48,833 bases of DNA from a virus (taxonomy: Duplodnaviria; Caudoviricetes): IMG/VR virus record IMGVR_UViG_3300016667_000424, positions 1 through 48,833 of that record. The stretch is one strand, 5' to 3'. Under the pieces are notes generated by a model that saw nothing but the letters and a program-made list of their open reading frames with translations, did no database searches and was not told the origin of the DNA. Position numbers and translations under genes: made by a program. Below are positions 1 to 29,981 of the stretch, piece after piece (position 1 is the first letter of the stretch; each line of letters starts with the position of its first letter).

Positions 1-198
1 CCGCATAGCCATGTGTCTTGTCATACAGCAACGAGACGAGCAGACCCTCAGGAGCGTCCTTCATCTTGGCCATACGCTTCCTCATGTCGTCGGCATCATT
101 TACGTTTCCGAACGTCGCATCCATCGACTGCTGGCTTCCAGCGTTGTTCCTATACTCGCTGGCGATATGTTCGATGGCCCTGCCGAAGCTGGTCTTCT
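1..198. repeat. Terminal direct repeat, left copy (circular-assembly overlap)
   Basis: Identical to 48636-48833 except A27 vs G48662; lies inside a coding frame. Confidence 0.97.
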
Positions 199-3100
199 CT
201 GACTCCCTGCTCATGCCTTCGGCGAATGCCTCTGGGAATTCGTCGATGACTTTGTGTCCTGCCTCGATGAGCCAAGAGCCGAGGGACTTACCGGTTCCAT
301 CGATTTCAACCTGATGCTCGAATCCTAGGTTCTGTGAGCGGATTCTGTCGATGAGGTTGTTGTACATCCCCCTCTTGCGGACGACGTCTAGGATGTAAGC
401 CGCGGATGACAGGTCTGCGTTTCTGGTCCCGACCATGAACATGCGTCCGCCGCCGAGGTTGACGGCATGGTTGACATAGCCGACGGAGCCATACCTGCCT
501 CGGTGATGCCTTGCGTCTGCGATAACGAGCGCCCTATGCCTCTTGGCCAGAGCGTTCATCACATAGGCGTTTACGAGGATAGGCCTGTAGGCGTTGTCTT
601 CGCCATGCGGGATGGAGTCTGGCAGATTGTAGGTCTGGATGTCTCCGTCTTCGTCAAGCTTGAGCCCGGCTTTCTTGGCTAGGTCTGCCTGCTGTGCCTT
701 AAGCTGTTCCAATTCGCTCGTAGTATTATAACTGCTCCAGACTGTGGCGACGAATGGAGAGACCGCTTCCATCATCCTGCCAAGCATGGTGTTCGCGTTG
801 TGCTGGATGCTGTCATACATCGCGCTAATCCTCATGTTGGCCGGGTCATGCTCGTAGTCGGTGGCACGGAACATGTATCCGAACCTGTTCACGAATTCAT
901 GCTTCGTGTCATAGTTTCCGTCCATCATCTCGTCCAGCCACCTGAGGATGTCCTTGTTGTCGTTGAGCTTGGTCCTGCCATGTGCGAAATCGACCAAGTC
1001 CTTGTCGGTGAACTTAACCACCGACGGGTCGTCCTTGAGCATAGCCTGAGCGACCTCTTCTTGAGTGACGCCGAGGGCATCCGAAGCGAACGCTAGGGTG
1101 GTGGCAACAATTCCCCTAGGAGACTTAAGCGTCTTGTCCTTGTGGAGCTTGTACTTTCGGAACAAGGGCTTGATGCCAGTCGCATCAGGTCCGACCTTTC
1201 CAATCCTGCTTCCAATCTTGGCAACGAACTCGACGACCTTTTCGTCCGGAGCGATGGCGAAGACCTGCTTCCTGTCGATGAACTTCTTGTCGAAGTTGGC
1301 ATCGTCAGGATTGATGGAGACATACCTATGAGAGTTATCACTACTTCCGCTCATCTCGGAATTCCTGACTTGGAAGGCCGCCTCTTCGGCGTCGATTGTG
1401 GACATCGTTTCCATGATGTTGGTCATCTGGACAAGCCTGTTAAGGTTGACCCTAATCTGCTTGTGGTCGCCGAACTGGCGGAAGAAATCCTCCCTGAGCT
1501 TGGGGTCTTTGGCCAGAACCCTGAGCTTTGCAGTCCAATTCTTGGCTAGCATGTCGAAGTCAATCTTGCCCTTGAACTGCTCGACTGCGCTGTAGTCATT
1601 TCCGGAAAGCTCTGCCAGCTCCCTAGCGACGCCGATGAACTCAGGGCTCATGGCCAAGAACAGCTTGGCGAGACCTGCGACATGCCTTTCGGAGCTTCCG
1701 GATGGAATGAAGTTTCCGAACTTGAGATTTCCAAATCCGGGAACAGCAAGGTTTGCAGGCATCAGGAATTGCCTGAGCACCTCAGGATTCATGCCTTCAA
1801 TCGGATGAAGGGTTGTAGCCCTATACTTCAGCAGGGTTTCCTGCGTCAGGGGGCCGCTCGGATACACATCAGGAATGCTGGCAGGAAGCCCGTAGTTAGT
1901 CTGAAGGTTCTGCGGGACAGGGATGAACTTGCCGCTGGGCTTCCACTCGGAGCCGCCAAGCTGGCTTAGCATGTACCTAGTGAATGGACCGGAGTTAGTG
2001 ATTTCATGATGGGCATATGCCCCGTAGAAGTAGTTGTTTAGTACATACCTAGCAGGGCTCCCTCCGTTGTATGTATTCAGGTACAGGTCCTTATGTCCTT
2101 CGCCAACCCTCATGGCCGCGAGCTTATCTGTGATTTGCTTTGCCTGAGCCCTGAGGCCCGGAATCTCTTCGATTTCCTTGAACGTGGCATACAGGGTGTA
2201 TTCAGGGTCAAGCGTAGGACCGAACGTTTTTCTCTGGTAGGTATCAGACTGCAATTCCTCGATGAACGAGACTGGAATCTGCGCCTCTTCAAGCCTTTCG
2301 CGTCCATAGGACTTCAGTTGCTCGAAGATGCTGGCAGGAGTGCTGAGAACGGGAAGAGCCGTAGGAACAGTAGCGTCCGTGACTCGCAGGTGGCCGAGCA
2401 AGTTGTACCCCTTGTCGCGAGGAGCACCCTTGTGGCTGGTCATGTACTTGGCGTAGTTTTCTCCGATTGCCTTCCTGACCTTGTATACATGATTCGCCGC
2501 GTCGATGGCGCTCCTGAACTTGGCCTTTTCCGCCGGGTCGGTTGCGGCATTCATTGCACCTTCCAGCTTTTCGATGTAGTCATTGAACGCAGTACTGTCA
2601 GGCGTAACTTCGGTGAACAAGGCCGTGTACACATGTTCTCCTAGGCCTGAAGTGTAACCAGCGTATCCATGGTCATCGCCCTTGTTGTAGCCATACTTGT
2701 CCTGAGCTCCTGCGGCCCGGTCATGGTATTCTTCGATGGCAGTATCCCAGTCGCTAAGGTGGAGTCCGGAAGCACTAAGCTGAGTGGAATCCATCGTCAG
2801 AGGGTCTCCGATTTCAATCTCAATCCCCTGAAGAGATGCCAGATTCTCAAGCTTGGCCTTGGCGACTGAGGAATTGATGTTGAGCCTGTAGGTCTCAAGC
2901 AGGGGAGCGGAGAACTGCAGAATTCGGTCTGGATTCTTCTGAAGCTCGTCGAGGATTCGCATGACGACGACGGACGATTCAGCGCCCTCAAGGCCGAGTT
3001 CCTTCACAAGCGAAGTCATGATGTCCTTGTTCATGACCTTTTCGTATGCGTCCGTAAGTGCGGACAGGTGCATGTCCTTGAGCGTCTGGACGGCCGTCTG

Positions 3101-6100
3101 CATCGCAGGAGCGGAATCGTCAGTCGCCTTGGTAAGTGCATTGTCGATAGCACCGAAGACGTTCTGCACCATCTTGAGCGTACGGCTTGCGTACAGCATC
3201 TTCGACGCGACGAAGTCGATGTTGTGAGGATTCCTGATGACCTGATTGAGGCTCTGATTGGTCAGCTTCTCGTAGTGTGGTTGCCACACCTTCCTGCCCT
3301 GAAGCGGGTAGAAAACGTACAGGTAATCGAATAGCTCCTTCTTGGTCAGGTTGTTCTTCCTGTTAGCGTACAGGAACTCGGCCATGCCAGTCGCCCTGAG
3401 CTCGTTCTTGGAGACAGTATTGGCCATGAGCAGGTCGAACCACTCAAGTCCGGTACGGACTTCCTTGACCCTCTTGTTCTTGTCCATGCCCTTGATGATG
3501 GCGTTGACCATCTTCGAGATGAACTGAACAGGGCTTCCGCCGATGGCGAAGGTGGACCTATGTCGAAGGATGGACTCGAGCTCAGACTGGCTGTGGTCTG
3601 CCAAGCTGAGGCTGATTCGCTCCTGCTTTGGGGCCTCCATAGTAAGGACATCTCCCTGCCTGAGCAGGCTGGCGACAGCCTTGGCCGCTTCTTGGGTATC
3701 GAAGGCTTTGCCTAGGTTGCCGACGCCATACTTCTTTCCGGCGCCCCACAGGTGGTTTCCGTACTCGCCGACATCTCCCGGCTCAACGTAAAGGCGGGTG
3801 CTTTGCTGGACCTGAGCAGACATGCCTTTTGAGTTTCCAGACGACTCGACCCTGAGCGAGTCCCTGTTCGGAGTAGCCTTGGCCACTTCGGCTTGGATGT
3901 TGCCTGCGGAAATCTTGTCTGCGAGAGCGTTGGCTTCTGACTCCGTGTTGAAGTTCCTGACCATTCGCTTGACCTGCTTCTTTCCGTCGGTTCCGACAGG
4001 GCCGAACTCGTTCCATGCGATTGTCCAACGCTTCTGTGAGTTCTTGAAGACAGTAAGGTTCAGGGAGTCGCTGGTGTCCCAAGAGTAATGCTTGAGGTCG
4101 CTTCGTCCGGGGAACATGGCCTCGATTGCCGCGGACCTGTCTCCGTACATGGCGAGAGACCTTTCGCTGTCTGGCAGGAAGTATCCGGATTCGCCCGACA
4201 TAATCCTGTGGAACGCAGAGGTGAGGTCTCCATGGAAGTTCGGATTGACGGAATTGACGGACCTAGCGGCCGTTTCCATCATGGTCACGATGTTGCCTTG
4301 GGTGGTAGCCGTGGAAGACTGCATGCCCATCAGCTGTAGCTTCGGGTTGACAATTTCTTCCCGCTCGAAGCTTTCCCTCATCGTATTAAGCAACTTTAGG
4401 TGAGCGTTCTTCTCGTCTTGGTAGTAGGTGAGCCTTTCGATGTGGGTGGCCAGCACAGGGCCGTCCATGCCGAACTGGACTGGAGCTCCACGCATCTTCG
4501 CGTAAGGGCCAGTCACGGACATGGCCGAAGCGTAGTGATTGAGGATTGCGGTATTGAAGTCCTCAATCTTCGCATTGGCAGGAAGCACGAACGTGAAGTA
4601 CGCGAAGTCCTGAGAGATGTCGTGCATCACCTCGTCGGCATAGGCCGCGAGCTGAAGCGCTTCCTCGGGGCTGGCAGGAATGTTTCCTTCGATTAGCTGA
4701 GACAGGCGAGCCCTGACATCTCCGGACATTTCCCTGACATACTTGGGCCTCATGGAGGCACCGCCGACTAGCTTGTTGTGCGTCCTTCCTCCGAGGAAGA
4801 TGTCCCCGTTGAGAAGCTTATGGACTCCCTTCAGGTAATCCCTGACGCCGACGTCATCGAGGCCAGAATACCCTCTGGCGACATTGAGGAACGGGAGCTG
4901 TTCCTTGGTGTTTCCACCGCCAAGGGCCTTGCTCATGCCGAAGATGGACCTTCTGGCTAGGGACTGTGAATAGGCCGTATCGTTGTTGGCGTCCCAGCCG
5001 ACGGCCCTGAGGAGAGGGATGCCGACTGCCGGGTTCTGGATGTCGGAGTCATGGACGATGTCGTAAGTCGCCGTGATGTTGGTGTCCGGAGAGAAGTTCA
5101 CCAAGATTCGTCCGTCCTCAAGACGCTTCCAGCTGATTCCGATTCTGCCGTAGTCCTTTTGGTGAAGCTGGGTGCCGAAGCCCGTGGAGCCTGCCCTGCT
5201 CATGACCTTGCCGATGTGGGACTGCTTGGACATGATGACGTTCCTCCTGTCTTCGACGGACTTGATGGACATCATCGAAGGATGCGGAGCGGCGGTCAGG
5301 TTAAACCTAGCGGCCGGGGTAGAGACCTCCTGCTTGCCTAGCTGTTTGGCTACGGAAGCGATTCGGTTGGTGATTAGGCTACGCTTGATTGCGCTCTTTA
5401 CGACTGTGCCGACGCTGGGGACGTTCAGAGAGCCAGCTCCGGAGCCGCCAACCATGTAATCGGAATCGGTGTAGACGCCGCGTCCGTTAGAATCGCTGGT
5501 CTTCAACCTGAGCACTCCATCGGAATCCTCGGAGAACATTCCAGCGAAGGTAAGATGCTCCGTGGTGTTGTGATGTGCCTGATTGATTGCATCCAACACA
5601 GTAGCGCCTTCGACGGCATCAGCCATGATTTCAGGAGACCTGTTCATGACTAGGTCGAACGTGTCGTCCTGACCGAACATTGTCCACTCAATCCTAGAAG
5701 TGGCGGCGGAGTACTTGGCAGTCGGGCTAGGTCCGTAGGCAGTATCGAGATACATGCCGACGCCTTCCCAAGAGCCATTGGACATTCCCGGAGTGATTGC
5801 GGGGTGATGCCTATAGGTGGACAGCTTGGCTCCGTACATTGGGACAAGCAAATCAGGGAACTCGGTATCAGTCCTGCTCGTCATGATTGGCGAGTCCATG
5901 ATGTTGATGTTGCGGGCTTGGAACGGCCTGCTGTTGTATCTGCCAGTCTGGGCGAGCGGATAGGACTTAGCCCTCCTGTCCTTCATGGCCTGAATGGAGA
6001 CGGCCATGCCAATCCAGAACTCGCCGCTTTCGTCGGCCATGGCGGATTCCATGAGCTTGGACAGCTCGGTGGAAAGGTATCCCGTGCCGACCATGTCAAT

Positions 6101-9100
6101 CTTGCTAGCCAGAGCGGAGTGCTGACCCATCAGGTGGTCGAGACCCATGGCAGAGCCGAAGTTAAGGGCTCCCTTCATCGAGTAGCCGAAGTTGGCCGGA
6201 AGCTGGTTGTTCTTTGAGAAATCGACGCCAGCGACGAGACCCAGCATGGTCATGATTCCAGACGAAGCCATCTGGGAGGAGGTCTCATGGGCGAGCATGA
6301 AGATGCCCTGCTTGTCGATGTTCTTAATCCAGTCCTTGGCCACCAAGGCGATTTCTTCCTTTGATGCTCCCCTCTCGATGGCCTCCATGACGGCAGGATA
6401 CATCTCGTTGAAGAATCCGAAGTTGGTAAGAGCGACCTTACCTTCGGGGGTAACGTTAGGAATGCCGACCTTCAGCTTGCCGAACAGGTGAGGCATGGCG
6501 ACGGCACCAAGCGTCGCATTGGTGACATGGACCGCGCTCTCAGAAGCGAAGATTGTGGACTTGTTCTTAGAGATGACGGGCTGTGCCATCTGGATGTTTT
6601 CCTGTCCGAGCAGCGACATGATTCGCCCAATCTGGGCCTGAAGGAACGCGCTGTTGTTGTTCCTGTCCGGATTCTCAAGCATCATCAGTCCCATTACGGA
6701 CTGAACCGCAAGGACGTTGCCGCCCAAGTAATAGGCCATTGGTCCGTTGCTGAGAGAGACGGCGGAAGTCTTGCTGTTGGGAGCGTACTTCTCAAGGTAC
6801 TCGACAAGCACTTCTGCCCTATCAAATCCTCCGACAGAAGCTTCTAGGTTGGCCTTGAACTGCTCGGGATTCGCATGTGCGTCCTCAAGCCTGAAGGCCT
6901 TGGGCCTGAGCATGCTGAACAGGCCGTGGTTGACAGTATTCTCAAGGTTGTGGAATGACCTGTTGTAGGCCGTGATTGCCTCGACTGGGATTCCTCGACC
7001 TGCGACATTGACCGGGAACGAGTTCATTCCCGTGACGTCGGCGTTGTCAGGGTCTAGGTTGATGATGGCTTTTCCGTCTGGCGCGACCATGCCGAAGACT
7101 CCGGTGAGGGACAGGCCTCTGTTCCTGACCCTGTCGGACGAAAGGAAATCGACGATTTCCATGTTGTGACTCGGAGACAGCTTCTTGCTGTAGACGGACT
7201 TGTCTGCGGCATCGTTGGTAAGCAGGGTCTCTTCCCAGACCTCGTAGATTTTGGAAATGAGAGCGGTCTGAGCGGAAAGCTTTCCGATTCGCTCCTTCAT
7301 GTCATCCCTGATGGGCTCCATGAAGGCGATTCGTTCCGCGAGCGGCATGGCCTTGATTTGATTTACGCCGTTGCCTACGAACCTGTCGTCTCCGACGTCC
7401 TCGAAGTACCTTTGCAGGTCATCCAAGTCCAAGTTATTGATGTCATCCTCGTTACGGATGACCCTTTCGACGTCGGCCAGAAGGGATTCAAGGTAGCGAA
7501 CATTGCCAGAGATGTCGTTGACCGAACCCTCAAACGCCCTCTTGAGCTCGGAATAGCTTCCGTCCCTAGAGAACTTGTAGGGCATGACGAGAAGCTCCTC
7601 CTGAGGGGTGGAGTTGACGTCGTAGTATACGGCGGATTGGCTGACGTTATCGAGGCCAGAGTTGACTGCGTTGGTCGCAATCTCGGCGTTCATGTTTGCT
7701 CCGGGCCTGATGACCTCAGAGACGTCAGCGCTAGCAAGGGTGACGGATTCTTCCGCGTGGTGGATGTACGCACCAAACAGGGAGCTAATCATCGTCGGAA
7801 TGAATCCGGTATGGCTTACTGCCCTTTGTCCGCTCTTGAGTCCGAACACGGAATCATTGCTGGCTTTGAGTCCGTACCTCTGAATCATCGTGGACGCAGA
7901 GCCAGAAGAAATTCCGAAAGTTTCTCCTACGCTAGAGAGGGTGTCGTCTCTCATTCCGACAGCGAGAGCGTCAGAACCGACGGCCACCCTGAGGGTTGAT
8001 TCTTCGAGCTCAGAGAGAAGGACAGAGTAAAGCTTCCTAGAGAACTGCTTGTCTTCTTCTGCGAGCCTCTGGATTTTGTCCACCGCGGCCTTGATGACCG
8101 GACCGATGAGAAGGGAAGCCCTCCTCATCCTTTCGTTCAGCCTTCCGACCATGTCGGGATTGATGATGACCTTGGGAAGGTTCTGGACGAACTTGGAGCT
8201 ATCGAACCTCTGCCTGAATTCGGCCCAAGCATCCTCAGGGCACCAAGAAGGCCTGCTCAGTCTGAAGCTAAGCTTGTTAGCGGTCCACTTGAACCTACCA
8301 AGCTCCATCTCAGCGCCGCTAGCCCTAGCAGGGTAAAGTTCTCCGATGCCAGCCGCCATGGCCGAGCCGACGTTGTTGTCGTCGGTGAGCTTGGTGACAA
8401 TCTTCCTGAAATCAGCCTGAGAAATGGTCCTGTTTCGCATGTCGGGGATTGCCCCGATTCCGCTCGTCACAGCCGCCGTGCTGAAGGTGATGTGGTTGAA
8501 GGCCAGAATGTTCAGCAGGTCGTTCTTGGTAAGGACCATGTCCTTCATCTTCGAATCGACCGCGTCAAGCATGACGGCCTTTGCGGACTCTTCCGTAAAC
8601 ACGCCGAGCTTCATCAGCTCAGACCTGATTTCTCCGCCAAGAACCATCGGCGGGAATCTGTCAGAGTTGATGATGTCGATGACGCCGTTACCGACGGACA
8701 AGACGTCTTCGGATTCGATGACGAAATTGGCCAGCTCAGCAAAGTCCTTGATGGTGTAGGTCCTAGGTTTCCCGCTTGCCCCGGTGGTCTCGGGCATGCC
8801 GAGGAACTGGGCGTTCGGGTCGCCATAGCTCGGGTACTTGTCGAATTGAGACCTGTTCTTGGCGACGAGAGCTTCCTTGGTCTTCTCGTAGTCTCCCTTT
8901 ACGATGTAGCGACCCGTGGTAAGAACCATCCTGCCATTGTCGTCGATTTCCCAGCCTTCCTGACTGATAACGAACCTGCCGAGGTCCCTGAGTTCGTTGT
9001 TGGCCTTGCCCATGAAGAACCTGACGACTGACATGAATCCGAGCGTTGCGGAGGCGGGGTTGTCCGCCGGGTCAGCGCCGATTCCAGCGATGGAGTTCAT

Positions 9101-12100
9101 CAGGGTGGAGCCGCCAAGCTCCCTAGCCCTGACTCCAGCCTTGTTCATAGACGAGTCGATGATTTCAAGGACGGAGCTGTTCTCTGCCAAAGCCCTGTCC
9201 TTAATCGCCAGTTCCTCCTGAGTGAGACCACGCCTCTGCATGGTGGTGAACGCCTGACGCTCGACGGGCTCGATGACATACTCCATGGCCCGGTAGTGCC
9301 TGAACGCCTTTGCGAGTGCGACAGTCCTGCCATCGGGATGCCCCTTGATGATGTCATCATAGCTGGACACCATGCCCATTGCATCAAAAGCGGCCCTGAA
9401 CTCCTTGTTCTCGGCCATGACAGACAAGTACCTAGGATTAGCGTCAGCGACGGCCTCCTTGAACTCGTCAAACTGCTTGAAGACCTTGTAAGCGTCCTCG
9501 GTGGTGTCGATGTTCGACGCTTGCCTGTGGAGGAACTCGGCCTTCCTGTAAAGTTCGTCAGAGATACGTCCTGCGGTGTGCTCGAAGGTGACGAACTCCA
9601 TCATGTTCCGCGTAGCGGTCTTCATGAGGGGTTTTGCGTGAAGACGCAGGCTGGCAATCACGGGAGCGTCCGGGTGGTCCACGAAGTTCTGGATGACCTT
9701 CAAGGCCGCACCAGCGCCTCCGTACTTCAGGTCGCCATACCCGATAACAGGTGCCTTTTGGATTCCAAGGAGCTTGGCAAAGCTTGCCTTAACGTCCTCA
9801 GGGTTGACGCCCTGAATGGACCTATGCTCTCCGAGAATGTTGCCAGACCTCTGCAGGATGTGCTGGATTTCATGAACGAACAGCCCGGTGATGTAGTTAC
9901 TTCCAGAGTACCTGCTATTCAGGCTTTCGGTATCGATTCGGAACTTGTCAGCTTCAGGAGGAAGGCCGAGCTTTTCGTAGGCAAGAGCCCTAGCTCCGAT
10001 GTTGATTAGGAAGGTGCCGTCGCTCCTTCTGCCAGCCTGAGCCCCATGGATGTCGATGAAGTTGACATCGACGTCCTTCAGCCAAGGGAAATACTTGTAG
10101 AGAAGGGTGTGACCGAAGACATTGCCGAGCTTGGTGGTGCCCAGAATCTGGTCCCTAGGCATGAAGACCTCTAGGCCCGGAGTCGTGAACCTACGCTCGA
10201 CCTCCTTCTGGTAGTCGGAGAAGGCCTTTTGCGGGTCAGCGCTGAAGGCAAACGGGAGCATGTGAGGCTCTCCGTTGGACGCGGAATAATCGACGAAAGA
10301 ATCCCTGTCGGACAGCTCGAAGATTTCGGTATCGACGCCTTTAATGGTCACACGCTTCAGCAGGCCGAGCTTGCTGAGTTCTTCCTTGTGTTCCTTGCTG
10401 AGTCCGGAGGCATCGGCAATCGAGTTCATGGTCTTAGGCTTGTTCCTAAGAGACTCGAACTGTCGGGCCTGAGTGGAATGTGCTTGGTTGATTGCCTTGA
10501 CTAGGTCTTTTGCCTTTTTGAGCTGGGCAGGGCTGGCACCGAACTGAGCGTAGTACTTACGCTCCATGATGGTGTCGAACGCCTTGCTGATTGGAGACTC
10601 ATCTCCGCCAATCGCCCAATACCTCTGCATCTCAAGGGTCCAGTTGGCGACTGCTTCGTCCATGAACCTAGACGCGAGCTCTTGAGGCGTAGCGTTTGCG
10701 GTACCGATGGAATTGATTCTTTCGTCAGGATTCCTAGCCTTTTCGATTGAATAAACGCCCTGAGCGATGCCAATTAGGCCCTTGTCTCCATTGGCGATTA
10801 CCTCGCCGTAGAGACCTTCTGCGTAGGCAAGCCTATCCTTCGGGGTTCCCTGAGTCTGCTCGAATGCGCTGGCAAGCCTGTTAAGTGCTGGCTCCAGCTC
10901 CGGGTTCATCGACATGATTGCGGCGTCAAGCACCCTGAAGTGCAGTCCGCCTTCGATGTCCCTGACGCTGAGCTTCTTCTTTTCAGGGAGAAGGATTGTG
11001 CTGACAAGGGCTCCGTAGGGGGAGTTGCCCTTATTCATCATGGCATCGGACGGCTGGGCATACTTGGACGCCACTTCGGTTCCGCCATAGACGCCTGAAC
11101 GCATGGCCATCTTGCCCGGCATGGCAGTTGCAACCACGCCCTTAGAAGAGACGATTTGCGTCACGCCCCTATCTGCAAAAATCGCCAATGGGTTGGCATT
11201 TGCAATCTTCAGCTGTTCCAAGGTGTACTTGGCGCTGATGTAATCATGGCTCGCGGAGGTGGCGACAACTTCGCCGCTGGAACCTTTGGTGACCTTCTGT
11301 ACGATTGAATGAACAGATTCGTTCATCACTCGTCCGACCTTCTGGAACAAGGATTCCCTGATTTTTTCCGGGGCGACGTTAATTACCTTGAGGGCTTCGT
11401 CGATTTTGCTGACGCCGTTGACGTCCTTGAACGCTAGCGCGTAGCTGACTCCTCCGTCTGCCGAAGGATACGGAATCCAGACGCTGTCATCGTTGAGGGC
11501 GGAATCCACATAGGAGATTGTGGCAAGAAGTCCGTCCTTGATTGAGTGGAAGTTGTTGTCGAACCATCGGGGATTCTGCGGCCTGACCTCAGCAAATCTT
11601 TGCAGGATAACCTCAGACCTGCTCGTAGGCTTGAACCCTTTCTTGAAATTAGAGGCAAAATCAGAACCGCTCGTAGACTTCTCAAGAATCGACTTAGCCT
11701 GCTCGGAGTCGCCGAGCATGAATGCGTTCTCAGAGTTGTCGTTGGACGGATTCCTATTCCTCTCGGACAGGCTTCTCTTGATTTCGGCCTGAATCTGTCC
11801 GACTTCCTGCTTCCTGTCCTTGACGTACTTTTCCGGGTCTTCCGATAGGGCTTTTAGCGTAGACGCCAGCTTGTAATGTGCGCCAACGACATCCCTGCCT
11901 TCTGGTGCATGATTGAGGGTGGGGAGCCAATAGGACATGTTTTCCCCGTACGGACTCATCGCCATGCTCATCGCCTCGATTGAGGACTCGATGGCGTAGT
12001 TGAGCATCTTGGACTTTGCCTCATCGTTGACTCCGTACTTCTCGATGTGGTCGTAATCGATGAGGATGGACATCACTCCAGTCTGAGCATGCCTCTGCAC

Positions 12101-15100
12101 GGAGAAGAACCTTCCGTTAGTATCAAAAACGGGACCGAATGCGTTCTTCTTGCTCTCTACGGCGACAATAGGGACGATGGAAGGGTCAAACCTTTCGACC
12201 CTGTTGCTTTCATTCCACTCCTTGAGCTTCTTCAGGCTGGATTTGCTAAGGATGTCATTGAGTGTGATGGCCCTCTTGAGCTTCGTGATGACGTTCCTGA
12301 TTGAGTCAAATCCGCCAATGTACTCAGGATACCAGACGACATCGCTGGTCGGGTCTAGGGAGGCAAGGGACTTCATACCCTTAGCCCTTCCTTCGAGCAT
12401 CCTCTGGGTGTAGGTCTGGTGCGTGATGCGTCCGACCTCGCTCATGTACTGGAGCCTCTGGCTCCTATTCATGTCAGCCCACTCGATTTCCGTGGGCTTA
12501 GGCATGAGGTCAGCAAGGTCGCGCTTGGCCAAGTCCTTCTCGACGGCGATAGCCGCCTTGGCGAAGTCCGCAAACATGCCTACAACACCGCCGAATGGGC
12601 TGAAGACCTTCCACTTAGTTCCGGTCTTGATGACTTCGTAGCCCTGTCCGTTGACAAGCCTTCCGTCGGACATTCCGACCTTCTCGAAGCCAGCGATGGA
12701 ATAGTTCCTGCGAAGGCCTTCATAGGACCTGCCGTGGTGGTACGGCATAGGCTTGCCCGTGGTCAGCTCAAGGCCGACCAGAAGCTCCATCCTCATGCTG
12801 TGGATGGGGTAGTTCGGGTTTTCGTGACTGCTGGAGTAGCCTTCGCGAGGAGAGTTGATGTAGGACTCGTCCTTACGGATGGAGCCGCCGAAGGTTTCGT
12901 ACAGGATGTCCCTGACCTTTTCGCCCTGACCGGGGAAACGCTTGTTGAACAGCTCGGCGGACGGGACGCGACTTCCAGCGTCCTTCATCATGTTGACGAG
13001 GTATTCGTCGAAAGCGTTGTTGTAGGTGTCCAGCGAGACAAAGGTGTTTCGGACGTCAGGCCTGCTCCAGAGCTTCATCTTGCGACGATGGATGGCCATG
13101 TAGTCCACGACAGTCATCAGCATGCCGCCGCGAGGAGTGCGGAGCTGTTTGCCAGCCGCGTCGGTGGTCTTGAGCGTCAGCTTCATCTCAAAGGGCACAA
13201 AGACCCTATGAGTGACAGAGACGTCGTTGCCGAACAGCCTCTGGAAGAAGCCGTTCTTGATGGTTCGCTGGCTGTCGCCCCAGTAAGTGCCCGTGAAGAT
13301 GTTGCTGGTGGCGAATCCGGTGGACTCCCATCGGTTGTATCCGTCCCTGACGACCTTGACGGCTCGCGCGGTCTCGGGGTCGATTGCCCCAGCCGCCTGC
13401 ATTGCGTCGAGCGCCTCATCCTTGATTCGCAACATGTCAACGCTCTGGTTGCCATGCTCGTCGAGGGCGATTTCCGGCCTAAGAGACTCGTCGAGATTCT
13501 TGAAGACCTCGAAGGCGTCCGTAGCGGCCTTCGTGGACATGTCGTTCAGTTCCTTGGTGCCCTTCAGCGTGGCACCGGCCTTGCCGATGTTGAAAAGGAA
13601 TTCCTTCCTGTGGAGCTTGGCTTCAGCGAGCTGTTGCGCGGGGCTCAGCCTGTTGATGGCCTGAGCGTCATGACTGGTCGCATCCCTGACCATCGACTGA
13701 ATGAGCTGGTCGAACTCGGGGGCCCTACGCCAGACGCCGTCGTCGTAGGCTTCGGCTTGAATGGTGAGCTTGCCGTGCATGCCCTTGTTGTTCGGGTCAT
13801 CGATGGCGAAGTCTCCGTACTTGGCCCTGACGCCAGCCATCTCAAGGTCCGTGACCTTTCGAGCGAAGCGCTCGTTGTAGATGCGTTCGAGGTTGATGCG
13901 GAAGGGTTTTAGCTCATCGGGCAGGATGAGATTCTGAAGGTTGGTATGAATGAACAGGGACTCGGCGTATCCGGCGATACCCTCTTCAAACATGAACTTA
14001 ATGGAGTCGAACTTGCCGACAGCGTAGGCGGCAGGAATCTGCTTTCCTTCGGCGTCTGGCATGCTGTGCAACCAGAAAGCGGCCGCACCATTGAAGTTGG
14101 CGCTTTCCCTCAGGTCCCTAAGCTGTTGAAGGTAAAATGCCTTGCTTCCATCCCTGTCCGTGTTGCCGCCTTCGTAGATTTCCTTGGCCTTCTTATTGAC
14201 TTCCGTGACAAACGCAGGGTCGTCTTTGCTGAGTCTGGTAGAGATGTCCTCGACTGCGAGTTCAAGCGACCTGCGTCGAGCCGCTCGCGAAGCAATGATT
14301 TCGTCGCTGAAGATACCTCCGTCTGCCTTGTCTCCGAAGAAACGCCTGAGATGCTCGCCGAGCTTTCCCTTTTCCCTTAGTGAGTAGCTGATGACGTGTC
14401 CGAGAACTTCGTGGCCAAATTCTTGGAACCTATGCTTTTCCCTGTTCAGGAACAGGACAGGAACCATTCCGTCCTTGCCCTTCTTGACCAGAGTGAAGCT
14501 ACCGCCAGCGTCGTCAGAACCGGAGAACTTGGATAGCTGATGCGGGTCGATGCCGTGGCTGACAAGGAGAGCCTCAAGGCTGGCCTTGTTTCCGACGTGG
14601 GTAATCAGGTTCTTCTTGTCCGCGGAGTCGAGCGACTGCCAGAGAATCTGGGCGACGCTACGGGTCTGGGACATGACCCTAGTGGACTTGGTGGCGTCGG
14701 CATAGGAAGTGGCCTCCCTGATGAACGAAGCGTACGACGGGTTAACCTTTTCGACCTGAGGAAGGTAGCCTTCGTCGAAGTTCTTGATGTGGATGTCGTG
14801 GGAAAGGCCTCCGTTGACAAGAGACCAGCCATGCCTGAGGGCTCCGCTGTATCCGCCCCACATCATGCCTTGGGCCGCACCGCCGACAGCACCACGCTCC
14901 TTGTCGGTCATGTATCCGAGGAAGGAGAAGGTCAGGGCATCCTTGTAAGCATGCTTCAGGGACGCTGTGGACAGCTGGATGACCGGGTCAACGACAGTAT
15001 TGAGCATCTTCGCCGTGACTTTTGCGCTCGGCGACAGGAGCGGATTGGCCGCTACGGACTCAAGGATGCTGAGAGAGGTAGGAGTGCCTGCTTCGATTAC

Positions 15101-16258
15101 GCCAAAGCTACGCATGGTAGCCTTGTTTCCGATTTCCTGAAGCAGTTCGGAGGTGGTCCTAAGACCCATCGAGCCGAGGTATCCGACAGTCTGCCTAGTT
15201 CCTCCAGCGACACCTCCGAGGGCCACGGAAGCGTCGGTTGCGACAGTCTCTGCGGCGTTGCGAAGGTAGCCAGACGAGAACCCGGTCCTGCTGGAAAGGT
15301 TGTCGATAGTGCCACCGATTGCGGAGCCAGCGATGTTGGCGGGAATCTCAAGTGCCTTACCGATGCCGCTGAGCGTACCGCCTACGGCCCTCTGGGTGAC
15401 CTTCTGTGCGAAGTTGTCGAACCTCTGGGTGGCAGAGGCGAGCGTGTTGCCAATCTTGCCGAACATGCTGGTCTTGTTGGCAAGACGTGCGGACTGAACG
15501 GCTTTTGAGCTGGCGGCGGCGAGGCCGAGCTCAGCGGAGGCACCGCCCGTGAAAGGAGCGGCGATGATGGAGGGAAGCTCCATGCCGATGAAAGACATGG
15601 CATGGGCGACCTTAGGATTGATGAAGGACCTGACCTTCTTGGCGGTGTCCTCGTCCATGTCCATGTACTGCTCAAGGACGGATTCATCGCCCTGCATCAT
15701 CCTCATGGAATGGTAGTTGAACTTACGGGCCTGATTCCATTGCTGGGCTTCTTCCCTCCAGTTTTGGGACGGCTGTCCGCTCATCAGACCTTTGATGACA
15801 GACTTGAAGCCGAACATGACGGAGTCCGGGTTCTCGGACTCTGCGGCCATGCCCCATAGGTCACGGATGGACCTTACGACGCCTTCTGCCGTGCTAGCGA
15901 CTCCCTTTACGAGGCCACCTTCCGCGATGCCCTCGACGAGGTTTCCGGGGATTGCGGCGATTTCACCACCAGCATCGGCCAAAAGTTGGCCGTAGTCGGT
16001 CACCCTCTTGCTGTAGCCGCGCTTGATTGCGTTCCAATGCTCCTCAGCGTCAGGACGGGACAGGTCGATGCCCTGACTCGGGTCCTCTTCGTAGAACTTG
16101 ATTACGTCCTCGTCGGTCTCTTCCTTGGCGAGGTGAAACCCTGCGGGCCCCTTGCTGATTGAAGGGCCTAGGTCTAGGCTCTTGCCAGCTTGGTTGAGGA
16201 GCATGGCATACCTAGCGGCCTCGTTAAATTCAGAGCCGGGGGGAGTAGAGGGTTCCAT
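1..16258 (-). CDS. Giant polyvalent virion/ejection protein, about 5,717 aa in total; continues at 48635..47740 across the circular junction
   Basis: ATG at 16258 overlaps the upstream TAA (TAATG) and begins MEPSTPPGSEFNEAARY. The ORF track has no terminated ORF in this frame from 16258 to 1, and every segment I hand-translated was open. The frame is in phase with 47740..48759 through the 198-bp repeat. Motifs: APFTGGAS, GHEVLGH..EEGIA, FELSD..GHTLLYKYFPWL..HEIQHILQ, GHLRVTD..FIEELQSD. Confidence 0.92.
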   Translation of the reverse strand, partial: MEPSTPPGSEFNEAARYAMLLNQAGKSLDLGPSISKGPAGFHLAKEETDEDVIKFYEEDPSQGIDLSRPDAEEHWNAIKRGYSKRVTDYGQLLADAGGEIAAIPGNLVEGIAEGGLVKGVASTAEGVVRSIRDLWGMAAESENPDSVMFGFKSVIKGLMSGQPSQNWREEAQQWNQARKFNYHSMRMMQGDESVLEQYMDMDEDTAKKVRSFINPKVAHAMSFIGMELPSIIAAPFTGGASAELGLAAASSKAVQSARLANKTSMFGKIGNTLASATQRFDNFAQKVTQRAVGGTLSGIGKALEIPANIAGSAIGGTIDNLSSRTGFSSGYLRNAAETVATDASVALGGVAGGTRQTVGYLGSMGLRTTSELLQEIGNKATMRSFGVIEAGTPTSLSILESVAANPLLSPSAKVTAKMLNTVVDPVIQLSTASLKHAYKDALTFSFLGYMTDKERGAVGGAAQGMMWGGYSGALRHGWSLVNGGLSHDIHIKNFDEGYLPQVEKVNPSYASFIREATSYADATKSTRVMSQTRSVAQILWQSLDSADKKNLITHVGNKASLEALLVSHGIDPHQLSKFSGSDDAGGSFTLVKKGKDGMVPVLFLNREKHRFQEFGHEVLGHVISYSLREKGKLGEHLRRFFGDKADGGIFSDEIIASRAARRRSLELAVEDISTRLSKDDPAFVTEVNKKAKEIYEGGNTDRDGSKAFYLQQLRDLRESANFNGAAAFWLHSMPDAEGKQIPAAYAVGKFDSIKFMFEEGIAGYAESLFIHTNLQNLILPDELKPFRINLERIYNERFARKVTDLEMAGVRAKYGDFAIDDPNNKGMHGKLTIQAEAYDDGVWRRAPEFDQLIQSMVRDATSHDAQAINRLSPAQQLAEAKLHRKEFLFNIGKAGATLKGTKELNDMSTKAATDAFEVFKNLDESLRPEIALDEHGNQSVDMLRIKDEALDAMQAAGAIDPETARAVKVVRDGYNRWESTGFATSNIFTGTYWGDSQRTIKNGFFQRLFGNDVSVTHRVFVPFEMKLTLKTTDAAGKQLRTPRGGMLMTVVDYMAIHRRKMKLWSRPDVRNTFVSLDTYNNAFDEYLVNMMKDAGSRVPSAELFNKRFPGQGEKVRDILYETFGGSIRKDESYINSPREGYSSSHENPNYPIHSMRMELLVGLELTTGKPMPYHHGRSYEGLRRNYSIAGFEKVGMSDGRLVNGQGYEVIKTGTKWKVFSPFGGVVGMFADFAKAAIAVEKDLAKRDLADLMPKPTEIEWADMNRSQRLQYMSEVGRITHQTYTQRMLEGRAKGMKSLASLDPTSDVVWYPEYIGGFDSIRNVITKLKRAITLNDILSKSSLKKLKEWNESNRVERFDPSIVPIVAVESKKNAFGPVFDTNGRFFSVQRHAQTGVMSILIDYDHIEKYGVNDEAKSKMLNYAIESSIEAMSMAMSPYGENMSYWLPTLNHAPEGRDVVGAHYKLASTLKALSEDPEKYVKDRKQEVGQIQAEIKRSLSERNRNPSNDNSENAFMLGDSEQAKSILEKSTSGSDFASNFKKGFKPTSRSEVILQRFAEVRPQNPRWFDNNFHSIKDGLLATISYVDSALNDDSVWIPYPSADGGVSYALAFKDVNGVSKIDEALKVINVAPEKIRESLFQKVGRVMNESVHSIVQKVTKGSSGEVVATSASHDYISAKYTLEQLKIANANPLAIFADRGVTQIVSSKGVVATAMPGKMAMRSGVYGGTEVASKYAQPSDAMMNKGNSPYGALVSTILLPEKKKLSVRDIEGGLHFRVLDAAIMSMNPELEPALNRLASAFEQTQGTPKDRLAYAEGLYGEVIANGDKGLIGIAQGVYSIEKARNPDERINSIGTANATPQELASRFMDEAVANWTLEMQRYWAIGGDESPISKAFDTIMERKYYAQFGASPAQLKKAKDLVKAINQAHSTQARQFESLRNKPKTMNSIADASGLSKEHKEELSKLGLLKRVTIKGVDTEIFELSDRDSFVDYSASNGEPHMLPFAFSADPQKAFSDYQKEVERRFTTPGLEVFMPRDQILGTTKLGNVFGHTLLYKYFPWLKDVDVNFIDIHGAQAGRRSDGTFLINIGARALAYEKLGLPPEADKFRIDTESLNSRYSGSNYITGLFVHEIQHILQRSGNILGEHRSIQGVNPEDVKASFAKLLGIQKAPVIGYGDLKYGGAGAALKVIQNFVDHPDAPVIASLRLHAKPLMKTATRNMMEFVTFEHTAGRISDELYRKAEFLHRQASNIDTTEDAYKVFKQFDEFKEAVADANPRYLSVMAENKEFRAAFDAMGMVSSYDDIIKGHPDGRTVALAKAFRHYRAMEYVIEPVERQAFTTMQRRGLTQEELAIKDRALAENSSVLEIIDSSMNKAGVRARELGGSTLMNSIAGIGADPADNPASATLGFMSVVRFFMGKANNELRDLGRFVISQEGWEIDDNGRMVLTTGRYIVKGDYEKTKEALVAKNRSQFDKYPSYGDPNAQFLGMPETTGASGKPRTYTIKDFAELANFVIESEDVLSVGNGVIDIINSDRFPPMVLGGEIRSELMKLGVFTEESAKAVMLDAVDSKMKDMVLTKNDLLNILAFNHITFSTAAVTSGIGAIPDMRNRTISQADFRKIVTKLTDDNNVGSAMAAGIGELYPARASGAEMELGRFKWTANKLSFRLSRPSWCPEDAWAEFRQRFDSSKFVQNLPKVIINPDMVGRLNERMRRASLLIGPVIKAAVDKIQRLAEEDKQFSRKLYSVLLSELEESTLRVAVGSDALAVGMRDDTLSSVGETFGISSGSASTMIQRYGLKASNDSVFGLKSGQRAVSHTGFIPTMISSLFGAYIHHAEESVTLASADVSEVIRPGANMNAEIATNAVNSGLDNVSQSAVYYDVNSTPQEELLVMPYKFSRDGSYSELKRAFEGSVNDISGNVRYLESLLADVERVIRNEDDINNLDLDDLQRYFEDVGDDRFVGNGVNQIKAMPLAERIAFMEPIRDDMKERIGKLSAQTALISKIYEVWEETLLTNDAADKSVYSKKLSPSHNMEIVDFLSSDRVRNRGLSLTGVFGMVAPDGKAIINLDPDNADVTGMNSFPVNVAGRGIPVEAITAYNRSFHNLENTVNHGLFSMLRPKAFRLEDAHANPEQFKANLEASVGGFDRAEVLVEYLEKYAPNSKTSAVSLSNGPMAYYLGGNVLAVQSVMGLMMLENPDRNNNSAFLQAQIGRIMSLLGQENIQMAQPVISKNKSTIFASESAVHVTNATLGAVAMPHLFGKLKVGIPNVTPEGKVALTNFGFFNEMYPAVMEAIERGASKEEIALVAKDWIKNIDKQGIFMLAHETSSQMASSGIMTMLGLVAGVDFSKNNQLPANFGYSMKGALNFGSAMGLDHLMGQHSALASKIDMVGTGYLSTELSKLMESAMADESGEFWIGMAVSIQAMKDRRAKSYPLAQTGRYNSRPFQARNINIMDSPIMTSRTDTEFPDLLVPMYGAKLSTYRHHPAITPGMSNGSWEGVGMYLDTAYGPSPTAKYSAATSRIEWTMFGQDDTFDLVMNRSPEIMADAVEGATVLDAINQAHHNTTEHLTFAGMFSEDSDGVLRLKTSDSNGRGVYTDSDYMVGGSGAGSLNVPSVGTVVKSAIKRSLITNRIASVAKQLGKQEVSTPAARFNLTAAPHPSMMSIKSVEDRRNVIMSKQSHIGKVMSRAGSTGFGTQLHQKDYGRIGISWKRLEDGRILVNFSPDTNITATYDIVHDSDIQNPAVGIPLLRAVGWDANNDTAYSQSLARRSIFGMSKALGGGNTKEQLPFLNVARGYSGLDDVGVRDYLKGVHKLLNGDIFLGGRTHNKLVGGASMRPKYVREMSGDVRARLSQLIEGNIPASPEEALQLAAYADEVMHDISQDFAYFTFVLPANAKIEDFNTAILNHYASAMSVTGPYAKMRGAPVQFGMDGPVLATHIERLTYYQDEKNAHLKLLNTMRESFEREEIVNPKLQLMGMQSSTATTQGNIVTMMETAARSVNSVNPNFHGDLTSAFHRIMSGESGYFLPDSERSLAMYGDRSAAIEAMFPGRSDLKHYSWDTSDSLNLTVFKNSQKRWTIAWNEFGPVGTDGKKQVKRMVRNFNTESEANALADKISAGNIQAEVAKATPNRDSLRVESSGNSKGMSAQVQQSTRLYVEPGDVGEYGNHLWGAGKKYGVGNLGKAFDTQEAAKAVASLLRQGDVLTMEAPKQERISLSLADHSQSELESILRHRSTFAIGGSPVQFISKMVNAIIKGMDKNKRVKEVRTGLEWFDLLMANTVSKNELRATGMAEFLYANRKNNLTKKELFDYLYVFYPLQGRKVWQPHYEKLTNQSLNQVIRNPHNIDFVASKMLYASRTLKMVQNVFGAIDNALTKATDDSAPAMQTAVQTLKDMHLSALTDAYEKVMNKDIMTSLVKELGLEGAESSVVVMRILDELQKNPDRILQFSAPLLETYRLNINSSVAKAKLENLASLQGIEIEIGDPLTMDSTQLSASGLHLSDWDTAIEEYHDRAAGAQDKYGYNKGDDHGYAGYTSGLGEHVYTALFTEVTPDSTAFNDYIEKLEGAMNAATDPAEKAKFRSAIDAANHVYKVRKAIGENYAKYMTSHKGAPRDKGYNLLGHLRVTDATVPTALPVLSTPASIFEQLKSYGRERLEEAQIPVSFIEELQSDTYQRKTFGPTLDPEYTLYATFKEIEEIPGLRAQAKQITDKLAAMRVGEGHKDLYLNTYNGGSPARYVLNNYFYGAYAHHEITNSGPFTRYMLSQLGGSEWKPSGKFIPVPQNLQTNYGLPASIPDVYPSGPLTQETLLKYRATTLHPIEGMNPEVLRQFLMPANLAVPGFGNLKFGNFIPSGSSERHVAGLAKLFLAMSPEFIGVARELAELSGNDYSAVEQFKGKIDFDMLAKNWTAKLRVLAKDPKLREDFFRQFGDHKQIRVNLNRLVQMTNIMETMSTIDAEEAAFQVRNSEMSGSSDNSHRYVSINPDDANFDKKFIDRKQVFAIAPDEKVVEFVAKIGSRIGKVGPDATGIKPLFRKYKLHKDKTLKSPRGIVATTLAFASDALGVTQEEVAQAMLKDDPSVVKFTDKDLVDFAHGRTKLNDNKDILRWLDEMMDGNYDTKHEFVNRFGYMFRATDYEHDPANMRISAMYDSIQHNANTMLGRMMEAVSPFVATVWSSYNTTSELEQLKAQQADLAKKAGLKLDEDGDIQTYNLPDSIPHGEDNAYRPILVNAYVMNALAKRHRALVIADARHHRGRYGSVGYVNHAVNLGGGRMFMVGTRNADLSSAAYILDVVRKRGMYNNLIDRIRSQNLGFEHQVEIDGTGKSLGSWLIEAGHKVIDEFPEAFAEGMSRESEKTSFGRAIEHIASEYRNNAGSQQSMDATFGNVNDADDMRKRMAKMKDAPEGLLVSLLYDKTHGYA

Positions 16259-17199
16259 TATTCAAAGGAAATTGATTTGCTTCGATACTTCTCAGTATTG
16301 ATTTGTCGCTGAGATTCTTGGCGTTCAGGGAGGAAGTCCAGCCCGTTCGCGTGGGCGGTGCTCTTGAGCTTTTCGAGCGTCTGTGCCCTAACCTTCTTGA
16401 GCAGGGTCATTTCATTGCCACGCAGTCGGGTGAACCAAGACGAGGCTCGCTGGGGGGTCATGGCTTGGAACACGGCAAGGTCCCTGTCGGACACCTGACC
16501 GCCGAGACCCTTGGCACCGCTCATAATCTTGGCATAGTCCAGAAGGATTCTGGACTCAAGGCCTCTGGCCTCCGTAGAGGCCTCAGTCGGGCCGAACCCG
16601 GTCATGATGGCGTTGTTCTTGTAGAGCTGTTCGAGCCTAGCAAGGTTAGTCATGAGGTTCTGGCTCTGGCCAATCAGGTCTCTGAAGCCACGGGCGTTTT
16701 CGTCGCCGCCCTTGAAGGGGGCAGACTTTACTCCCCTAGCCCTAGCGTACTCCCAGACGGCCATACGCTTAGGTCCGGAAGGGGTAGGGACGTCGCGCTC
16801 GCCCTTAGGGACGATACGCATGGTCACCTTGCCGCCTACGCCTTCCTCGCCCTCGCCGAAGTCGAAGTCGTAAGGGTCAAAAATCTGGAAGTTGGAGCTC
16901 CCGTCCTTGGAGTTCATGAGGGCCGCGGCGGCACCATGGTCACCAAGGTCGTTGGCATAGAACATGGCATCCTGAGAGGCCATGGACTGGGGCTTTTGTG
17001 TTTGGGCGGCGGGTGCACCCATGCCACCTCCGCTCTTACCGCTGAAAGCGGCCTGAGCGCCCGCCAGAGGGTTCATGCCCATCTGTCGGTACTGCTGGCC
17101 CATTGGGCCATAGGTGTAGCCTCCCTCCTGCCTGCCTTGGGACAGGACGTCCCTAGGGCTGATGGAGAAGGAGTCGTTGAGCGACTCGTCGCCTTCCAT
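16258..17199 (-). CDS. Putative internal virion/ejection protein (313 aa)
   Basis: Helical protein with a G/Q-rich N-terminus and a GQVSDRDL motif; lies between the nozzle gene and the giant gene; coupled stop/start. Confidence 0.6.
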   Translation of the reverse strand: MEGDESLNDSFSISPRDVLSQGRQEGGYTYGPMGQQYRQMGMNPLAGAQAAFSGKSGGGMGAPAAQTQKPQSMASQDAMFYANDLGDHGAAAALMNSKDGSSNFQIFDPYDFDFGEGEEGVGGKVTMRIVPKGERDVPTPSGPKRMAVWEYARARGVKSAPFKGGDENARGFRDLIGQSQNLMTNLARLEQLYKNNAIMTGFGPTEASTEARGLESRILLDYAKIMSGAKGLGGQVSDRDLAVFQAMTPQRASSWFTRLRGNEMTLLKKVRAQTLEKLKSTAHANGLDFLPERQESQRQINTEKYRSKSISFE

Positions 17200-18005
17200 T
17201 ACTGTTGTTCGATGCCGTACTGCATCGCCTTGTAGCTAGTCTTCTTGTCCTTGCCAGCCATCGGTGCAATCACAATGACGCGACCTTCTCCGCCAGCGGT
17301 ACGAGCCACACCCGGAAGGACGTAAGGCTCCTTGCCAGCGAGCTTCAGGGCTTCCGTGTCATGAGCGATAGCGTCCGTAAGGAACGAGTGCAACTTCTCG
17401 GGAGGGAGCTCGCCGTTCATGACGGCGGTACGCATCTTCTTGTACTGCTCAGCCCCGATGGACTTGATGGCGGTATCGACCCACTTGGACTGACCTCGGA
17501 GGGCCTTGTACTTAGGGGCTGAGAACGTGCTAGAGCCGCCGAGCTTATCCTTCTGGAACTTCTCGCGGAACTTAATCATTTCCTCGTTCGCGTCAGGATT
17601 CTTGATGCCGTTCTCATCGACACCCGGCTCCGTGCCGTCGCCCTTCATTTTGTAGGCCAGAGTTCCAGCACCACCATAGACGGCGGCGTTGCCAGCAGTC
17701 TGAAGGCCTACGCCAGTCGCGTTGAGCGTCCTGTCTCCGAGAGTGTGCACAGTCTTGTAGGCGTCAGTCGGAACAAGCGGATTCTTGCCTGCCTTTTGCG
17801 CGGCCAAAACTTGCTTCTCCACGTTCGGGTCCTTAAACACGTTGGCAGAACTAAGAATGGGTGCCTTATTTCGGGTCTGGATTCCGAAGCCGCGAGCGAT
17901 GTTGGTCGCCCACTTGCCCATGTTAAGGGTGTCGCCCAAGTTCTTAAGGCCACCCTTGCCGAACATCTTCTTGATGCCTCTGGCACCTTTGGTGAATTTA
18001 CTCAT
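17199..18005 (-). CDS. Putative internal virion protein (268 aa)
   Basis: Basic amphipathic N-terminus, Gly-rich hydrophobic segment AAVYGGAGTLAY; operon position. Confidence 0.55.
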   Translation of the reverse strand: MSKFTKGARGIKKMFGKGGLKNLGDTLNMGKWATNIARGFGIQTRNKAPILSSANVFKDPNVEKQVLAAQKAGKNPLVPTDAYKTVHTLGDRTLNATGVGLQTAGNAAVYGGAGTLAYKMKGDGTEPGVDENGIKNPDANEEMIKFREKFQKDKLGGSSTFSAPKYKALRGQSKWVDTAIKSIGAEQYKKMRTAVMNGELPPEKLHSFLTDAIAHDTEALKLAGKEPYVLPGVARTAGGEGRVIVIAPMAGKDKKTSYKAMQYGIEQQ

Positions 18006-18007
18006 GA

Positions 18008-20152: not shown

Positions 20153-20157
20153 TTTAA

Positions 20158-20766
20158 TTAGTCATTAAGGTTATCGTCGATGCCTTCCCAGCCGGGAATG
20201 ACCTGACGGACAGGACCTTGGTCGCGGGCATCGGGCTGAGGGGCGACGGGGCGTGCGGCCTCCATTCCAAGCGTGCCTTGCGCGAACGGGTCTGCGAAAT
20301 TGTTCTGGCCGATGCCTTTTAGGTAGCCGCGGCGTTTGGCATTACTGCCACCCATGCTGGACCTCATGGTCTCTAATGCCCTCTTTGCACCTTCGTATTC
20401 GGGACTGCCGGGCTCGTAGGATTCAAGGACGTTCTGGTAGTGGTCCATGATTGCCTGCTCTTCGCCAGCAAGCTCGTCTCCAACTGCCTGCTCCTTGGCC
20501 GCGGCTTCATCTTCTGCTGACTGACGGGCGTATTCATCAGCCTGACCCTGATAGGCGGCTCGCTGGTCAGCTAGGGCCATGTGCATGCCAAGAGTGCCTG
20601 CCAGCTTCTCCTTGTTGAGCTGACTCGCAAACATGCTACCGAAGCCTTGCTCCTGACCCTGCTGAGCGGCCTTGAATGCGTTTTCCAGCGGAGAATACTG
20701 GCTTTGGATTGCGGCGGAAAGCGTATCGCGGCTTCCACCGCCGCCTCCGAGTTCGAGTCTGTTCAT
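20158..20766 (-). CDS. Putative ejection protein (202 aa)
   Basis: A/Q/E-rich helical ORF in the late operon. Confidence 0.55.
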   Translation of the reverse strand: MNRLELGGGGGSRDTLSAAIQSQYSPLENAFKAAQQGQEQGFGSMFASQLNKEKLAGTLGMHMALADQRAAYQGQADEYARQSAEDEAAAKEQAVGDELAGEEQAIMDHYQNVLESYEPGSPEYEGAKRALETMRSSMGGSNAKRRGYLKGIGQNNFADPFAQGTLGMEAARPVAPQPDARDQGPVRQVIPGWEGIDDNLND

Positions 20767-28633: not shown

Positions 28634-28651
28634 AGTGATGATGATTAGGTC

Positions 28652-29978: not shown

Positions 29979-29981
29979 TGA

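Follow-up and report, generated by a model that had tools for sequence, protein, structure and literature searches.

The 48,833-nt stretch analysed here (the window) covers positions 1 to 48,833 of the IMG/VR record IMGVR_UViG_3300016667_000424, a virus of the Caudoviricetes. Its minus strand carries a giant open reading frame (ORF) of 17,154 nt that crosses the circular junction of the genome, takes up 35.3% of the 48,635-nt unit genome and encodes a protein of 5,717 amino acids (aa) and 630 kDa. This protein (hereafter the giant) is encoded by the final structural gene in a minus-strand operon with the large terminase and a SU10-type capsid protein. A short motif recurs at the joints between its modules and changes in concert in each lineage of relatives, which suggests that the giant could be a precursor cut by a protease of its own.

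The giant gene and its relatives

1..16258, minus strand: giant ORF, aa 1-5419, running on past the end overlap
47740..48635, minus strand: giant ORF, aa 5420-5717 and the stop, with relatives aligning to the C-terminus
48636..48833, no strand: assembly overlap of 198 nt, a copy of 1-198 apart from a single mismatch, at which the G of 48662 encodes the conserved Pro5411

A sequence-only reading of the window had proposed one frame from 16258 through base 1 and 48635 to a stop at 47740. The frame was open over all 5,419 codons from 16258 down to base 2, and the stop at 47740 was its only one. An ORF listing of the linear window reports it only if open ends are allowed. Positions 1-198 are a copy of 48636-48833 with a single mismatch (27 A/48662 G). 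The circular reading was supported by a 5,717-aa database protein from a 48,776-nt contig, whose sole difference from the giant of the window is residue 5411 (P, as in the 48662 version); this proline is invariant among 12 aligned close relatives. Since 48,776 equals 48,635 + 141, this contig is possibly a second circular assembly, perhaps of the same sample. The junction was settled by 16 further full-length relatives (5,691–5,859 aa, 49–81% identity across the 5,000 residues used in the search), which align end to end, C-terminus included. The sole run holding the stretch was a freshwater metagenome (0.96 of words), possibly the one the window came from. In it, one contig, which has the G allele, extends 51 nt past 48635/1 and another begins at 97, with a 45-nt gap between them and no single contig bridging the whole end overlap. 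At 48004-48133 the same run holds a strain variant, another contig that differs at 12 positions and has a depth of 4.2 vs 16.1. No RNA data holding the stretch were found among the datasets listed.

A search of IMG/VR with the capsid protein gave 74 loci. The giant was looked for in 45 of them, mainly those on longer contigs, and 31 regions were fetched. Its two halves were matched in 38 and 33 of the 45 records, and both in all 20 records that were at least 90% complete. From these capsid loci and a profile search, 67 proteins of >5,200 aa were collected and reduced to 50 non-redundant sequences, 45 of them near full length once five cut by contig ends had been excluded. These 45 sequences (5,602–6,525 aa, pairwise identity down to ~17%) form 17 lineages when clustered at 40% identity, and the giant gene takes 35–40% of the DNA in 15 near-complete genomes. 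Domain order is constant across the 45, without shuffling, and the last piece is the sole large variable module. The giant of the window has a single cysteine in its 5,717 residues, and near-full-length relatives have 0–10.

The largest gene of this common freshwater phage group matches nothing in the collections searched. PHROGs, Pfam and NCBIfam returned no family match for it, and eight relatives searched against Pfam gave nothing but a C-terminal helix-turn-helix (HTH) domain. The giant had no tblastn match in 50,697 phage records, and a distant relative gave one weak match, to EBPR podovirus 3 (3% coverage, E 4e-3). PDB searches by sequence or profile returned nothing below E 0.09. Two later segments of the giant, each scanned as a single protein against viral contigs, likewise had no match. 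In the literature searched, mostly outside subscription journals, neither this family nor sites that co-vary in this way were found described.

A joint motif and the modules it separates

The motif S[IL]A[DG] was found exactly five times in the 5,717 aa, always at an aligned joint (S1187, S1946, S2389, S4218 and S5682). A further site near aa 1297 came from a scan with lineage position-specific scoring matrices and surfaced without being used for training.

12689..12709, minus strand: joint motif 1, RNY-SIAG, S1187, inside a segment of the structure model with a predicted local distance difference test score (pLDDT) <50
12359..12379, minus strand: joint motif 2, ~S1297, degenerate here and clear in 26 of 46 sequences
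10412..10432, minus strand: joint motif 3, TMN-SIAD, S1946, opening the zincin 2 module
9083..9103, minus strand: joint motif 4, LMN-SIAG, S2389, closing the zincin 2 module
3596..3616, minus strand: joint motif 5, ISL-SLAD, S4218, opening the EExQSD module
47839..47859, minus strand: joint motif 6, GLM-SLAD, S5682, preceding the sole large variable module

The motif is 4–6 residues long and each lineage carries its own version at the aligned joints, namely S[TVI]GG or SVGD, SL[KRG]G, N[ML]MVGG, LM[IL]G, QITG and LLM[AV]SG. Across the 17 lineages, similarity was 2.88 among a lineage's own sites, 1.82 for the same site across lineages and 1.56 for other sites of other lineages, an effect reached by none of 10,000 label permutations and none of 1,995 random five-column sets. 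Because the sites had been chosen in the protein of the window, the test was rerun with its clade removed (2.91 vs 1.89) and separately for the two superclades of seven and nine lineages (2.62 vs 2.33 and 3.14 vs 2.62), in each case with none of 5,000 permutations reaching the observed value. Each site was also left out in turn and predicted from the other four of its protein. Among ~5,700 positions it ranked fifth or better in 65 of 85 tests, with a median rank of 2, and in 13 of 85 (median 41) when training used the other superclade. In 21 other proteins of the window (6,628 aa), the motif was absent save for one weak serine-less match, and the capsid, scaffold and portal candidates were without it. 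It is repeated at module borders, protein-specific and co-varying, as expected of a self-processing polyprotein. Internal translation starts at the motifs were considered and rejected, the S-type sites having no Met at a fixed place.

With borders drawn at the motif serine, the joints delimit the following modules.

12701..16258, minus strand: predicted piece 1 (aa 1-1186, 130 kDa), with an Ala/Gly/Ser/Thr-rich stretch (aa 221-480), zincin 1 and a strongly conserved block without assignment (aa 800-1185)
13982..14413, minus strand: zincin 1, H616-E617-H621 with distal E759, HExxxH here and HExxH in the other clade
9095..10423, minus strand: predicted piece 4 (aa 1946-2388, 50 kDa), zincin 2, with a FExSD block, HExQH (H2129, E2130, H2133) and distal E2333
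3608..9094, minus strand: predicted piece 5 (aa 2389-4217, 200 kDa), without family match
1..3607, minus strand: predicted piece 6 (aa 4218-5681, 163 kDa), running on to 47851, a helical domain followed by a split enzyme-like core

All the motifs quoted in the sequence-only reading were recovered in place in the full translation: APFTGGAS at aa 234, HEVLGH at aa 616 (14413), EEGIA at aa 758 (13987), FELSD at aa 1980, TKLGNV... at aa 2042, HEIQH at aa 2129 (9874), EPVERQAF at aa 2330 and RRGLTQEEL at aa 2342. Its description of the APFTGGAS segment as hydrophobic proved too strong (Kyte-Doolittle peak 1.27 in a 19-residue window), the composition pointing to an Ala/Gly-rich segment and not to a clear membrane helix. 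Both zincin sites that it had recognised are kept in all 45 relatives, down to ~17% identity (E617 in 44 of 45). An AlphaFold2 (AF2) model of aa 480-1290 (mean pLDDT 75) predicts for zincin 1 a zincin fold, a three-stranded sheet with helices, with a lethal-factor-type match; a fold search with the conserved block at aa 800-1260 gave no clear match. Zincin 2, assigned by sequence and flanked by a joint motif on either side, had a neutral metalloprotease as its best PDB profile match, at E 0.37. The block around it had been called LPD23-like, which was not confirmed: at E≤1, Pfam LPD23 had no match in the zincin 2 segments of 28 family members.

In piece 6, the core is split by a 500-aa insert into H4609, H4623, R4625, EExQSD (4667-4672) and Q4675 on one side and Y5224, D5248 and R5255 on the other, and all these residues are present in 45 of 45 sequences. 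The AF2 model (pLDDT 71) gave helical-bundle matches only in fold searches, none of them clear, with the GNAT fold among those considered; no new fold is claimed, as both AF2 models exceed 400 residues. A profile of aa 4240-5290 searched against 1.84 billion representatives gave 44 matches, all of them giants of this kind or fragments except P0059, while P0060 reads as a fragment of the giant family; the same profile found nothing among the longer proteins of a word-indexed set. A compact form of the core occurs in the unrelated proteins P0059, P0061, P0062 and P0063, as 1–4 tandem EIQSD modules, and in P0063 it is fused to ART-PolyVal. P0059 itself had no tblastn match in the phage records, and the third block of piece 6 (PxG...DAR) no significant match to P0059. 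In the ESM Atlas, aa 4150-5350 had no usable match and the compact module led to unnamed clusters only (0.77–0.80). The repeats of P0059 all end in a short GQPTYAKA stretch, possibly a linker tag of that protein.

An internal-repeat scan, covering the giant up to aa 4801, showed that aa 2519-2594 in piece 5 duplicate a small helical domain that piece 6 carries at aa 4243-4322 (hhalign probability 87%, E ~5e-6). Piece 5 also has an HE pair at aa 3324-3325 (~6284-6289, minus strand) that is invariant in 17 close relatives, and three distant relatives (L096, L101 and L103) have a full HEIAH near aa 3490, at similar depth in an unchecked alignment; by sequence, the pair could possibly be a third, decayed zincin. 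A hairpin-plus-helix unit ending in F-x-[TD]-x-x-[EK]-A seems to occur four times (aa ~1205-1245, 4075-4120, 4170-4200 and 5460-5490), three of the copies by pattern, and was not reported by profile self-comparison. The last piece, after motif 6, has 36 aa here; in relatives its length ranges over 33–261 aa, and some of these carry an HTH domain in it.

Processing, delivery and alternative explanations

Six sites kept matched, protein-specific and at module borders would be explained by one reader with drifting specificity. A protease is favoured as the simplest such reader, since the protein itself has two intact zincins and no other protease gene was recognised. As the motif changes in step at all joints of each lineage, we lean towards a virion-packed precursor that is cut at the motif by its own zincin. 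From gene position and analogy, the 630-kDa giant would be packed in the head of a short-tailed phage as a large ejection protein, and one of its zincins would cut it into about seven pieces of 130, 12, 72, 50, 200, 163 and 4 kDa. Zincin 1 is weakly preferred as the protease, since the form of its metal motif goes with the class of joint motif: the S-motif clade has HExxxH, the M/Q-motif clade HExxH. Cutting might take place in the head or once the protein has been ejected. The pieces would pass more easily through a tail of 30–45 Å (PMC13434306), and cargo could go to different targets. Piece 1 may act as an envelope-crossing anchor and pieces 4–7 as cytoplasmic cargo, including the enzyme-like EExQSD piece and a small DNA-binding protein that would be present in only some relatives. 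The fuller picture is more tentative, falling somewhat short of probable: a widespread family of freshwater phages of ~48 kb that would devote 35–40% of the genome to a self-cutting precursor of 5,600–6,500 residues, with a six-site code rewritten in each lineage together with the form of zincin 1, and would release a new split EExQSD enzyme into the host. Packaging, injection and host takeover are all inferred.

Several observations weigh against self-cutting. The lineages are related and so not independent in the test of concerted change, a quick tree places the largest motif switch in a single event, and the change between HExxxH and HExxH sits on only one branch. Site 5682 drifts in one clade, and the 36-aa last piece would be odd as a released product. 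The constant domain order over 45 sequences would suit one machine. Pooled over 17 genes, the sites share more identical codons than expected (221 vs 147, and 151 vs 127.5 ± 9.9 under stricter controls).

Two of these features, the domain order and the short last piece, would be natural if the giant were ejected uncut in the manner of the N4 virion RNA polymerase (vRNAP), which is packaged whole though it holds a zincin-like HExxH domain (PMC5512222). The motif would then be a docking or packaging tag read by a single partner, such as the portal, the scaffold, a chaperone or the groove of a non-catalytic zincin, which would likewise force concerted change. We consider this rather unlikely, because the catalytic ligands of both zincins are intact throughout the family (with the one exception at E617), the motifs flank zincin 2 exactly and precede the variable HTH cargo, and the tag is absent from the other virion proteins of the window.

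That a protease other than the zincins cuts at the motif, whether from the host or as an unrecognised head protease of the phage, seems improbable. The zincins would in that case target the host or peptidoglycan, whose digestion by such zincins is proposed in the available texts on phi24B and crAss-like phages (bioRxiv 10.64898/2026.04.10.717836; 10.1101/2020.03.07.982082), and a lineage-specific motif might follow the host. However, the scan of the window proteins revealed no protease family. Substrates of head proteases carry the site of the protease (T4 gp21, phiKZ gp175), unlike the capsid, scaffold and portal candidates of the window.

A short repeat at the DNA level, homogenised by gene conversion or serving in module exchange and without function in the protein, would account for the pooled codon excess, which was individually significant (p≤0.03) in 6 of the 17 genes. 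It is nevertheless a very unlikely explanation, as the gene of the window shows no excess (7 identical codons vs 10.6 expected) and encodes its motif serines by both TCN and AGC, the repeats are merely 12–18 nt with scattered silent differences, and the modules are unshuffled. Some DNA copying may have contributed, since the pooled excess, though smaller, persists under the stricter controls. An external tail or head appendage is barely credible: the gene does sit in the structural operon and a place inside the head rests on inference, but no fibre, Ig-like, beta-helix or collagen match was found, both models are mostly helical and enzyme-like, and the HTH cargo in some relatives implies a cytoplasmic target.

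Among known systems, the giant most resembles the polyvalent proteins (Iyer et al. 2017, PMC5512222), being a large protein beside the virion genes of a terminase-portal phage with two metallopeptidase (MPTase)-type sites, including the HEXXXH variant, and a lethal-factor-type fold match; one of its modules also has compact relatives fused to ART-PolyVal. It may join unrelated activities, with the zincins, the enzyme-like EExQSD core and, among certain relatives, the HTH. In contrast to polyvalent proteins, the giant and eight relatives had no Pfam match to LPD, ART, methylase, helicase or ParB domains, which divergence may hide, and its order is fixed where theirs is variable. Since it lacks catalogued LPD domains and its architecture is not shuffled, it is classed as a variant and not as a plain member. 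Its size is no record, a plasmid protein of 12,242 aa being given in the same paper (PMC5512222). That paper also proposes that MPTases cut polyvalent proteins by autoproteolysis and describes processing of P1 DdrB before packaging; in its main text the word 'linker' does not occur and 'cleavage site' occurs once, whereas the giant shows visible candidate cut sites that change in concert.

N4 gp50 is, as described in the available texts, also a giant (3,500 aa) and the last of the ejection proteins of its short-tailed phage; it has an HExxH domain, and its N-terminus is likely membrane-associated (PMC13434306; PMC5512222). Unlike the giant, which is 1.6–1.9 times longer and has two zincins, it has a T7-type polymerase and is packaged uncut; the vRNAP motifs DFDxD and T7 motif B, searched as patterns, were found in none of 45 giants. 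Stx phage phi24B gp47, a large metallopeptidase protein detected in virions and proposed as an ejection protein, differs in its 2,811 aa with LPD1, LPD5 and LPD38 (bioRxiv 10.64898/2026.04.10.717836), and the giant has no tblastn match among the 50,697 phage records. The crAss-like gp65-gp66-gp67 fusion is likewise a zincin virion polyprotein thought to be cleaved into components (bioRxiv 10.1101/2020.03.07.982082), and DdrB is alike in being processed; unlike these two, the giant has no DFDxD polymerase or ParB domain. As for a DarB-like methylase-SNF2 type, an NPP[YFW]-type motif was present in 1 of 45 sequences, Walker A was absent here and at no conserved column elsewhere, and there was no Pfam match.

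The sequence-only reading had further suggested a co-injected host-takeover or anti-defence polyprotein. The polyprotein part gains from the joint motif and its concerted change, and the gene position is as expected for an injected protein; the anti-defence role found no backing, as no known anti-defence, methylase, helicase or polymerase module was recognised by Pfam, PHROGs or NCBIfam.

By itself, the giant is of an expected kind, and it is the co-varying site code that makes an old proposal directly testable. Although autoproteolysis of polyvalent proteins by zincins was proposed in 2017, hardly any sites are known. The giants described here provide predictions for six sites and for the sizes of the products, two proteases as candidates, and pairs of motif and protease that are specific to a lineage and could be swapped, so that self-cutting could be examined on expressed fragments without a cultured phage. 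If true, the family would be a natural series of protease-substrate coevolution. In the giant, ~4,000 residues are without assignment besides a putative enzyme-like domain.

Gene neighbourhood

27227..34042, minus strand: head module, with the SU10-type major capsid protein (27227-28633) and the large terminase (32414-34042), by Pfam and PHROGs
16258..20766, minus strand: four genes upstream of the giant (202, 714, 268 and 313 aa), Ala/Gly-rich, without family match

The Pfam matches of the head module were SU10_MCP (E 3.8e-35) and Terminase_6N (E 4.6e-9). The closest cultured capsid proteins are merely 24–29% identical and come from Vibrio VPp1-like phages, Venkman and phiM5; from what we take to be the nature of these phages, the phage of the window is presumably short-tailed. 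A search for the host with a single pattern, and hence a weak one, gave no GTDB match. The four upstream genes likely encode small ejection or internal virion proteins. In the 714-aa gene (18008-20152, minus strand), the C-terminal end consists of three near-identical Pro-rich repeats of ~40 aa.

Beyond the giant lie two membrane-protein genes (46771-47762) and then a terminator-like hairpin (46661-46682), which is usable on either strand and at which two transcription arms converge. An SLT-type lytic transglycosylase (38269-39003, minus strand, Pfam E 4.1e-5) is distant from the membrane-protein genes. No polymerase or integrase was found by Pfam among 44 window proteins scanned. A lambdoid-style replication and recombination set, comprising a PD-(D/E)xK exonuclease, an HTH initiator, an IstB/DnaC-like ATPase, ERF and RusA, occupies 41315-46120 (plus strand) and 36468-36980 (minus strand).
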